Source: Escherichia coli (lineage in GTDB: Bacteria > Pseudomonadota > Gammaproteobacteria > Enterobacterales > Enterobacteriaceae). From it: a stretch of DNA of 64,000 nt. Made by a program: the position numbers and the translations under genes. The DNA lies in NCBI RefSeq assembly GCF_003018235.1, contig NZ_CP027437.1, one strand, 5' to 3'. Positions within the stretch are counted from its first letter, which is position 1. Every line of letters begins with the position of its first letter. Below the pieces are notes generated by a model that saw nothing but the letters and a program-made list of their open reading frames with translations, did no database searches and was not told where the DNA came from. Of the stretch, positions 23,026 through 54,957 are shown piece after piece.

Positions 23026-23402
<377 letters not shown>

Positions 23403-23412
23403 TGTTTTACGT

Positions 23413-53093: not shown

Positions 53094-53389
53094 TTTTCGA
53101 TCCTTTCATTGTGTTGTCGCACATCCCTGGTGCGTTCTGTCGACGCATCTTTCAGGATGTAACAAAGTGTTTGCAAGGTCGAGTATAAGGAAAGTTACAG
53201 CTTCGGGAAGCGAAAAATGCTGGATTTTAAAGAGAGGTCATGTTTTGCAACTTAATGGTTACATTTGTTTGACATAAACAGAGGGAAGGACTGGCTACTA
53301 AGGCTGATTAGATAACATATGGGCAAAACTATTTGGAATATGAGAACGGTTGCGCTCCTTTAATGTGCTATGCCATATAAAGTCACTGG

Positions 53390-53620
53390 CGCAGGGAGCG
53401 CGCAGGGGGCGGCCAATCGCCGCCGCCCCCTGCACCCCCAGGCTCTGGCGAACAAAATCGCCGCTGCGCGGTTCCCTCAGCTTATCCCTTGCGGCTACCG
53501 GGTCGGGCGTAAGGGAACGTCCCTGTAAGATGCGCCCTCGCCGCGCATCCATGCGCGTCGCCCCGGCCTCCAGGGAACGCTTCGGCGATTTTGACGCCAC
53601 CAACACCCGTGCGGTCTTTT
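53390..53620. other. GC-rich intergenic element with nested inverted repeats (function unknown)
   Basis: Hairpin CAGGGGGCGG/CCGCCCCCTG (53403-53432), long-range inverted repeat CAAAATCGCCG/CGGCGATTTTG (53453-53463 / 53583-53593), palindrome CGCGCATCCATGCGCG (53542-53557), repeated AGGGAACG motif; no convincing ORF. Confidence 0.3.
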
Positions 53621-53708
53621 TGTAAAGAGCTATAAGCCGATTACATAATTAATAGCTCACCTTTGTCTGGAATGAGTTATCTCTAGTAATGGCTTAATAT
53701 ACAGCGAA

Positions 53709-54674
53709 TCATTCTCCCCGCTGCTTATCATGCCGATAATTCACCCAGGCGTTGATAATAAATGTCATCACCAGAATGCCAAACACCACGCCCAGCGAGA
53801 CGGCGATTGGAATATGGTAGAAGTCGACAATCAGCATCTTGATACCGATAAACACCAGAATCACCGCCAGGCCATATTTGAGCATCGAGAAACGTTCTGC
53901 TACGCCCGCCAGCAGGAAATACATCGCACGCAGGCCGAGGATCGCAAACAGGTTTGAGGTCAGCACAATAAACGGATCGGTGGTCACGGCGAAGATAGCC
54001 GGGATGCTATCCACGGCGAAAATCACGTCGCTCAATTCCACCAGAATCAGCACCAGCATCAGCGGCGTGGCATACAGCAAGCCATTCTTACGCACAAAGA
54101 AATGCTCGTTGTCGATGGTGTCGGTCATGCGCAAATGACCGCGTAGCCAGCGCACCAGCGGCTTGTCGCCAATGCCTGATTCATCTTCATGGGCGAGCGC
54201 CATCTTCACGCCGGTAAACAACAGGAAGGCACCGAAGATATACAGGATCCAGTCGAACTGCGAAATCAGCCAGCTGCCAGTGAAGATCATGATGGTACGC
54301 AGAACAATCGCCCCGAGCACGCCATACACCAGCACGCGGCGTTGTAATGCCGCCGGAACAGAGAAATAGCTGAACAACATCAGCCAGACAAAGACGTTAT
54401 CGACCGCCAGCGATTTCTCAATCAGATAACCCGTGAGAAAGGCCAGTGCCTGTGGATCGGCAACGGCGCGACCTTCGGTTTGCACCAGATACCACCAGAA
54501 AGCGGCGTTAAACAGTAACGACAGCGTCACCCAGACCAGCGACCAGGCCGCAGCCTGTTTCATGGTCATGGCATGTGCCCCACGACGCCCCTGCAACAAC
54601 AGGTCGATAGCCAGCATAATGGCGACAACAACAGCGAATCCGCCCCATAGCAACGGCGTGCCGACAGTATTCAT
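53709..54674 (-). CDS. alx: TerC-family membrane protein Alx (putative Mn2+ exporter)
   Basis: 321-aa [30 protein letters not shown]... Confidence 0.9.
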
Positions 54675-54699
54675 AGAAGTTCCTTACACATAAAAAAAA

Positions 54700-54910
54700 C
54701 GGCCAACGTCGGAAGACGTCAGCCGCTGCTTTTTATGCATAGACCTCGCCTTCCGGCAAGGTCTCACTTACAACAAAAAAGGAATACGTCTGCGTATTCC
54801 TTTCGGGTTGCCCGGTGACCGGATGTGGTTTTTCACACATCGTAATGACGATCGACCGACAATGAAGTTACTCCCCTTTGCAGGTAACAAAGTATGACAG
54901 ACCATTCAGC
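54700..54910 (-). ncRNA. alx 5' leader: yybP-ykoY-family (Mn2+/alkaline-pH responsive) riboswitch element (SraF/PRE region)
   Basis: Minus-strand leader contains CUUUGUUACCUGCAAAGGGGAGUAAC... characteristic of the yybP-ykoY motif; located in the ygjR-alx intergenic region. Confidence 0.55.
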
Positions 54911-54957
54911 CAGTCAATGGTCTGTTACATACCTTTTACACTGTTTTACTTTGGCAA

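Follow-up and report, generated by a model that had tools for sequence, protein, structure and literature searches.

The window, that is, the whole stretch of 64,000 nucleotides (64 kb) under analysis, is a segment of the Escherichia coli chromosome, on whose minus strand the stop codon of ygjR (54958) and the ATG of alx (54674) are separated by a spacer of 283 bp. A 401-nt leader query matched 5419 of 5426 complete E. coli genomes, the best matches lying in the ygjR-alx interval with an identity of 99.8%. The product of alx, named 'TerC family membrane protein Alx' in RefSeq, was recognized by the Pfam family TerC (PF03741, E = 1.3e-53), which corroborates the family given in the first-pass annotation of this DNA. 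The term 'exporter' used there is in line with the current literature, in which Alx is assigned as a Mn2+ exporter against an earlier importer suggestion (PMC10197570). The same annotation had proposed 54675-54957 as approximate boundaries of the leader. This interval encloses the element, but it is the entire ygjR-alx intergenic spacer, whereas the leader as transcribed covers only ~54882-54675 (minus strand); 54957-54883 comprises the ygjR 3′ flank and the alx promoter. The leader is framed by the following features.

53709-54674, minus strand: alx coding sequence, an ORF of 321 aa of the TerC family
54681-54685, minus strand: Shine-Dalgarno sequence AAGGA of alx, read from the sequence; (A)AGGA is kept in orthologs
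54912-54917, minus strand: -35 hexamer TTGACT of the alx promoter, read from the sequence and conserved in orthologs
54889-54894, minus strand: -10 hexamer TACTTT of the alx promoter, conserved in orthologs, with a 17-nt spacer to the -35 hexamer
54882, minus strand: probable transcription start (+1), obtained by fitting the published numbering to the sequence, 7 nt past the -10 hexamer

The refined promoter span is 54917-54889 (minus strand). Over 62-76 orthologous leaders the -35 TTGAC was found to be invariant or nearly so, at a constant distance to the aptamer; the -10 hexamer reads TATTTT in most genera, and both hexamers are kept across genera at constant spacing. A simple sigma-70 consensus scan did not call this promoter, because the -10 TACTTT fits TATAAT at only three of six positions, and it was therefore located by hand and by conservation. 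The transcription start was derived from the residue numbers used in the literature (A11 in L1, U35/A37 in L3, C19/G23 in L2 and A114/A115), which fit the sequence only with +1 = 54882. Furthermore, an inverted repeat, ACAGACCAT...ATGGTCTGT (54897-54925, minus strand), flanks the -35 hexamer on both sides. Between genera its arms were paired at 72.9%, compared to 31-38% in slid controls, and they co-vary, 54 double-change cells being counted where shuffles gave 29 ± 6. Judged from the sequence, this repeat may be an operator, or else the terminator of ygjR, in which case it overlaps the alx promoter and its U-rich tail serves at the same time as the -10 region.

Leaders of genes for TerC, MntP/UPF0016 and P-type ATPase membrane proteins are the known context of the yybP-ykoY class, and here a metal-homeostasis gene, the TerC-family gene alx, is located 3′ of the leader with its ATG 195 nt from the core. 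The first-pass annotation had described a conserved yybP-ykoY core with flanking pairing in the minus-strand leader. Both were recovered: AAAGGGGAGTA has a single exact match in the 64-kb window, at 54879-54869 (minus strand), where 0.01 would be expected by chance, and the adjoining helices P1.1 and P1.2 are invariant in 70 orthologs. The architecture of the aptamer was derived from single-sequence folds and a 70-sequence alignment of Enterobacterales alx leaders, and comprises the following parts.

54869-54879, minus strand: core AAAGGGGAGUA, the 3′ end of the P1.1 rising strand together with the 5′ side of L1; unique match, invariant in 70 orthologs
54756-54881, minus strand: Mn2+ aptamer, a three-way-junction variant of yybP-ykoY closed by P1.1, from the alx-type covariance model and 70-sequence pairing
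54860-54864, minus strand: L2 capping loop CAUUG (C19-G23 in the literature), which replaces the P2 helix (PMC12934788)
54812-54859, minus strand: P3 arm with P3.1, the L3 bulge and P3.2, from pairing over 70 sequences
54770-54811, minus strand: P4 arm with the base helix GCAAC/GUUGU, the distal hairpin GGAAUACG/CGUAUUCC (54800-54781) and U6 (54780-54775)
54756-54769, minus strand: falling strand AAGU-GAGA-CCUUGC, i.e. the 3′ side of P1.2, the 3′ side of L1 and the 3′ switch strand of P1.1; invariant in 70 orthologs

P1.1 is formed by GCAA(A)GG (54881-54875) with CCUUGC (54761-54756) and P1.2 by ACUU (54868-54865) with AAGU (54769-54766). The internal loop L1 between them (GGAGUA/GAGA) has its 5′ side at 54874-54869, A11 of the literature being 54872, and carries the signature of the class, GGGGAGUA on the 5′ side and GAGACC on the 3′ side, both strands being invariant and pairable in the 70 orthologs. 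Between P1.2 and P3.1 only the five nucleotides CAUUG are found in 70 of 70 orthologs; neither folds nor alignment revealed a P2 hairpin in any of these leaders, and the four-way junction is thus replaced by a three-way junction. The literature does not count the four-way junction, canonical as it is, among the essential features of the class, as the three-way alx structure contains the same metal core. P3.1 (54859-54849 with 54821-54812) is 99.1% paired over 70 sequences and the P3.2 hairpin (54841-54822) 91.9%, each with five compensatory pairs. These covarying helices enclose the seven-nucleotide asymmetric bulge L3, UCAUUAC (54848-54842), which matches ACAUACU of mntP in length, position and the common C-A-U, is near-invariant across the 70 genera-spanning alx leaders and contains the Mn-contacting A37 at 54846, an assignment that agrees with PMC12934788. 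The base helix of P4, the arm that completes the left leg, is 99.4% paired with three compensatory pairs over 70 sequences, and the distal part of this arm varies in length. The falling strand 54756-54769 can pair alternatively in P5 of the expression platform.

For comparison, 80 alx loci were collected from one-genome-per-species bacterial assemblies, ranging from Escherichia to Serratia, Hafnia, Pantoea and Erwinia. Almost all of them carry GGGGAGTA and GAGACC upstream of alx, in nearly all cases 81-142 nt apart. In the 70 aligned leaders the three-way-junction fold (P1.1-L1-P1.2, L2 cap, P3.1-L3-P3.2, P4) yielded 96.5% standard pairs, compared to 24-40% in slid controls, and 13 pairs with changes on both sides, all of them in P3.1, P3.2 and P4; its covariation score was reached by none of 500 shuffles. 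P1.1 and P1.2 are invariant in these leaders and consequently give no covariation signal. An alx-type covariance model (R1) produced a single match in the window, full length at 54885-54752 (126.2 bits, E = 5.7e-33), which is partly by construction, as the model was trained on the 70 leaders including that of the window; likewise, its matches at 79 of the 80 orthologous loci are largely training sequences. For this reason the independent support for membership in the three-way-junction subclass comes from the covariation count.

Several leaders deviate from this layout. In Escherichia albertii NBRC 107761 (positions 814-1124 of its locus) an insertion of ~190 nt with REP-like sequence is located inside the P4 hairpin, separating the 5′ part (P1 rising strand, L1, L2, P3 and the 5′ half of P4; 814-~915) from the intact 3′ half of P4, the P1 falling strand and the platform (~1044-1203). 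ERIC-like insertions were found in P4 of Siccibacter and 'Enterobacter' pulveris and, in Phytobacter, between riboswitch and ATG. In Atlantibacter sp. RC6 an internal stretch is deleted, so that L1 directly adjoins the P1.1 falling strand, and Rouxiella has no aptamer and keeps the P6 terminator hairpin.

The expression platform extends from the aptamer to 54675 and offers two alternative sets of helices.

54741-54764, minus strand: P5 hairpin of the OFF state (AGACCUUGCC / GGCGAGGUCU), present in the minimum free energy (MFE) fold, which captures the P1.1/L1 falling strand
54692-54725, minus strand: P6 intrinsic terminator 'site D', stem 54725-54715 / 54710-54700, followed by U8 (54699-54692)
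54747-54754, minus strand: 5′ strand GGAAGGCG of the ON helix ('P5/P6', anti-terminator), pairing with 54718-54711
54711-54718, minus strand: 3′ strand CGUCUUCC of the ON helix, overlapping the P6 5′ strand and loop

P5 (54764-54755 with 54750-54741) shows 91.3% pairing in the 70 sequences and is mutually exclusive with P1.1, as a switch helix should be; P5 of the MFE fold agrees with the published P5 (PMC12153347). The terminator-like P6 is 95.3% paired with three compensatory pairs, and P5 and P6 taken together are 93.4% paired across the 70 orthologs, with the compensatory changes in P6. The ON helix, which excludes both P5 and P6, reaches 99.1% pairing compared to 48-72% in slid controls, and its pairs change from G-C to A-U in 11 sequences and from A-U to U-A in two. 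As these compensatory changes join the loops of two hairpins of the OFF state, the comparative data support both conformers. The MFE fold of the full leader (z = -7.2) contains P5 and P6 with U8, has the L1 rising strand paired with the ribosome-binding region and is the published inactive conformer (PMC12153347).

Two terminator-like hairpins end at 54775 and ~54693, i.e. 108 and 190 nt from +1. In vitro termination products of ~108 and ~190 nt ('sites B and D') have been reported, the ~190-nt product being SraF, or PRE (PMC9472077), and the hairpin ends coincide with them if +1 = 54882. The 54775 end belongs to the distal P4 hairpin with U6, the intrinsic terminator 'site B'. By a crude criterion, a T-run of at least five just ahead of the 3′ strand in the base helix of P4, such a terminator was found in 10 of 76 orthologous aptamers, including Escherichia, Pseudocitrobacter and some Lelliottia; in most genera P4 is short and lacks a U-tract. 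Equilibrium folding of 74 leaders did not reproduce the switch: the fold with the aptamer forced was ~15-16 kcal/mol less stable than the MFE fold, P6 was retained, and the predicted pairing of the Shine-Dalgarno sequence was inconsistent across orthologs. Consequently, a model of switching would have to rely on co-transcriptional kinetics, for which the alx literature has also argued.

The first-pass annotation had expected an Rfam/Infernal scan with the yybP-ykoY covariance model to fix the boundaries of the element. This expectation failed. RF00080 of Rfam 15 ('Manganese'), the family to which the literature assigns alx, gave no match at E ≤ 10 in the leader, neither in a 351-nt segment nor, at E ≤ 1, in a 6-kb segment, nor in the whole window at gathering thresholds, so that the leader stays below the gathering score of 45 bits; 20 diverse orthologous alx leaders likewise gave no match at E ≤ 10, and RefSeq/PGAP annotates no riboswitch in the alx leader. 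As a positive control, the mntP leader of E. coli K-12 (L002:662-758) was scored by the same model with 41.6 bits (E = 6e-10), also under the 45-bit gathering score, and no riboswitch is annotated at the mntP leader in the K-12 record. The RF00080 consensus structure models the P2 hairpin, P3 and P4 and has no P1 pairs. Since the mntP control also falls below the gathering score and RF00080 models a P2 that alx does not have, we attribute the negative result at alx to insensitivity of the model, not to absence of the element. The lack of a covariance-model match, which had been named beforehand as refuting the assignment, was literally obtained, yet it is unsound as a refutation and is a false negative; as evidence of absence it was rejected, given that the structurally validated mntP aptamer itself lies below threshold. 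Alx-type sequences thus go unrecognized by the current covariance model. Those Rfam members whose L3 reads as in alx all belong to Bacillales and make up 3% of the members (PMC12934788), which suggests that the Rfam set does not include the enterobacterial alx class.

In the opposite direction, the alx-type model gave no match in the mntP leader with default filters, and 5.5 bits (E = 0.2) with filters off, the latter placement falling exactly on the L1 halves GGGGAGUAGCC...GGCGAGACC. Homology of the alx and mntP aptamers is therefore not demonstrated by covariance models in either direction. Sub-threshold matches of other Rfam families in the leader (STnc370, STnc240, RydC, mir-192 and others) were discarded as generic terminator or hairpin look-alikes.

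The only Rfam match above gathering threshold in the window is rnpB, the class A RNase P RNA (23027-23403, plus strand, 318.6 bits). On the other side of alx, the alx-sstT spacer (53094-53708) contains at 53440-53605 (minus strand) a GC-rich (65%), strongly paired element of ~166 nt (fold z = -2.6), which matched the Rfam family TwoAYGGAY over its full length with a sub-threshold 29.9 bits (gathering score 43). This element is repeated at dispersed sites and carries no annotation; 5425 of 5426 E. coli genomes have 1-5 copies of it, the other copies being ~88% identical to the one here, and similar sub-threshold matches to TwoAYGGAY were obtained for a paralog in the yohP-dusC spacer (25.9 bits) and for the copy of Escherichia sp. 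L005 (31.4 bits). The ~430 bp past the alx stop codon (~53280-53708) are unrelated to the alx-sstT spacer of K-12, which has a different segment of ~200 bp rich in repeats of the CCCTCTCCC/GGGAGAGGG type; only the sstT-proximal ~210 bp are common to the window and K-12. Of 5426 genomes, 1659 have the spacer type of the window over its full length.

Compared to the alx leader of K-12, the locus, architecture, promoter and expression platform of the present strain are the same, and L1, L2, L3, P1, P4, P5 and P6 are identical. Three differences were found: U instead of C at 54859, which gives a U·G instead of a C-G pair at the base of P3.1; C instead of A at 54828 in the capping loop of P3.2; and a terminal U-tract of U8 instead of U7. 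The change at 54828 was considered as one in the published pH-sensing loop and rejected, as that loop is L2 (54864-54860) and 54828 belongs to the P3.2 cap. None of the three is located in L1, L2 or L3, they appear structurally neutral, and no functional difference is expected; from the sequence we infer that this 3-nt variant behaves like the K-12 element.

The canonical aptamer of the E. coli mntP (yebN) leader has in common with alx the L1 module GGGGAGUA(R)C...G(Y)GAGACC, a seven-nucleotide L3 with C-A-U on the 5′ side of P3, P3.1/P3.2, P4 and the switch helix P1.1, and both exert translational ON control of a Mn2+ exporter. Unlike alx, mntP has a P2 hairpin and hence a four-way junction, ACAUACU as L3 (UCAUUAC in alx; PMC12934788), no internal terminators and no pH response, and it is found by RF00080 (41.6 bits), which does not find alx. 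The apo structure of the mntP aptamer is cited in PMC12153347 as PDB 4Y1M. As described in PMC12153347 and PMC12934788, the two coaxial legs of the Lactococcus lactis yoaB and Xanthomonas oryzae yybP-ykoY riboswitches dock via L1 and L3 around Mg2+ and Mn2+ and use P1.1 as switch helix, as in alx, but are joined in four-way junctions. The first-pass wording 'typical' needs correction: covariation tests and the literature show the L1/L3 core of the class, but the element is its three-way-junction variant, its L3 is divergent, and it contains two intrinsic terminators internally.

Taken together, locus identity, covariation of the three-way junction and the literature establish that the leader is the known pH- and Mn-responsive element SraF/PRE upstream of alx, as the first-pass annotation had proposed; the element is already known. 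We hold with high confidence that the leader ~54882-54675 (minus strand) is the alx riboswitch, a three-way-junction Mn2+ ON-switch of the yybP-ykoY class with the switching described below. In this reading, sequence, fold, covariation of the aptamer and of both platform conformers, promoter conservation and terminator positions were obtained by computation, and Mn2+ binding, the pH effect, reporter responses, the three-dimensional structure and the function of Alx are taken from the literature. Sensing of Mn2+ and pH by this element was established in published work by the crystal structure, reporters and probing. The alx aptamer was reported to be devoid of P2, to have a divergent L3 and an intrinsic terminator in P4, and alx-like riboswitches were reported only in Enterobacterales (PMC12153347). 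Its crystal structure (9JGM) shows a three-way junction with the class-typical L1/L3 metal-binding core, and the same work, which includes smFRET and mutants of L2 and L3, reports that Mn2+ stabilizes docking and that alkaline pH sensitizes the aptamer via the L2 capping loop and the alx-specific L3 (PMC12934788).

According to the mechanism we favor, Mn2+ would be bound between L1 (GGAGUA/GAGA) of the P1 leg and the seven-nucleotide L3 (UCAUUAC, with A at 54846) of the P3 leg, and docking of the two legs would stabilize the switch helix P1.1. In the absence of Mn2+, P5 would capture the L1/P1.1 falling strand, whereupon P6 and U8 could form and yield the ~190-nt SraF RNA; the freed rising strand would pair with the ribosome-binding region, leaving alx poorly transcribed and untranslated. 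In the presence of Mn2+, P1.1 is predicted to hold and P5 not to form, so that GGAAGGCG (54754-54747) would pair with CGUCUUCC (54718-54711) to the exclusion of P6, the Shine-Dalgarno sequence would be exposed, and Alx, a TerC-family Mn2+ transporter, would be made. Alkaline pH would sensitize the aptamer to Mn2+ via the L2 capping loop and the alx-specific L3, and it also raises cytoplasmic Mn2+.

The distribution of the reporter responses bears on whether the leader is mainly a transcription attenuator, in which the terminators P4/U6 and P6/U8 are the chief control and translational effects are secondary. The two terminator-like hairpins with their matching in vitro products, the classic anti-terminator geometry of the ON helix and the retention of P6 in every genus, even in the aptamer-less Rouxiella, fit such a mechanism, as does the K-12 transcriptional reporter, which rises 5-fold with pH and 2.7-fold with Mn, a response attributed to terminator D (PMC10197570). 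However, induction of the translational fusions is far larger (68-fold by pH, 21-fold by Mn), the response being mainly post-transcriptional (PMC10197570), and a P4 terminator present in only 10 of 76 orthologs, by the crude T-run count, cannot be a conserved mechanism; we regard an attenuator of this kind as unlikely. Still less can be said for a pure pH sensor in which alkaline pH prolongs RNA-polymerase pauses and so leads to the active fold with no metal ligand involved. Such pausing was the first published mechanism for PRE, as summarized in PMC9472077 and PMC3874183, and the large free-energy gap between the forced aptamer and the MFE fold does argue for kinetic control. In later kinetics, however, pH 8.5 did not lengthen the pause dwell times, and the pauses turned out to have been mis-mapped (PMC9472077), the pH response is reported to require Mn binding and the mutation A37U abolishes activation (PMC12153347, PMC12934788), and an invariant L1 with a near-invariant L3 over 70 leaders is what a ligand pocket, not a pause signal, predicts, which makes this mechanism highly improbable.

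Equally implausible is that the ~190-nt SraF acts in trans as a small RNA in its own right and is linked to alx only incidentally: although SraF was originally identified as a separate small RNA and a strong terminator (P6 with U8) precedes the Shine-Dalgarno sequence, synteny of the element with alx extends to 79 of 80 Enterobacterales loci, the platform pairs with the ribosome-binding region of alx itself, regulation in cis has been demonstrated (PMC10197570), and the cited alx literature reports no trans target of SraF. The weakest case is made by a leader unrelated to yybP-ykoY, with the 11-mer arising by chance or convergence and the Rfam negative taken at face value. The absence of an RF00080 match at E ≤ 10, of a significant alx-type match on mntP and of P2 from the alx leader would agree with this, but RF00080 is insensitive even to mntP, the L1 halves, the seven-nucleotide L3 with C-A-U, P3.1/P3.2, P4 and the P1.1 switch strand are ordered as in mntP, the crystal structure of alx has the metal-binding core of the class (PMC12934788), and a TerC gene is the typical context; we find this reading barely credible. 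The three-way-junction Mn2+ riboswitch accordingly remains our preferred reading.

Beyond this riboswitch function we mention a speculation to which we give little credence: the abundant ~190-nt SraF, which includes the Mn2+ aptamer in full, might also act in trans, for instance as a Mn2+-buffering or base-pairing RNA, and, separately, the P4 terminator might be a recent add-on in few lineages (about 10 of 76 orthologs by the crude count, including Escherichia). The former, if true, would explain why the P6 terminator is retained in every genus including the aptamer-less Rouxiella; the latter, if true, would provide a third, pre-aptamer checkpoint.

For the biology of E. coli the analysis adds nothing new, as the alx leader is among the best-studied riboswitches of this organism and the present copy has essentially the K-12 sequence. 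For the family, RF00080 and hence RefSeq annotation miss the whole enterobacterial alx class, with mntP below threshold, and because of this the phrase 'no Rfam hit' is unusable as a refutation for yybP-ykoY elements. Comparison of the sequences, in turn, independently supports the published three-way junction as well as both conformers of the expression platform.
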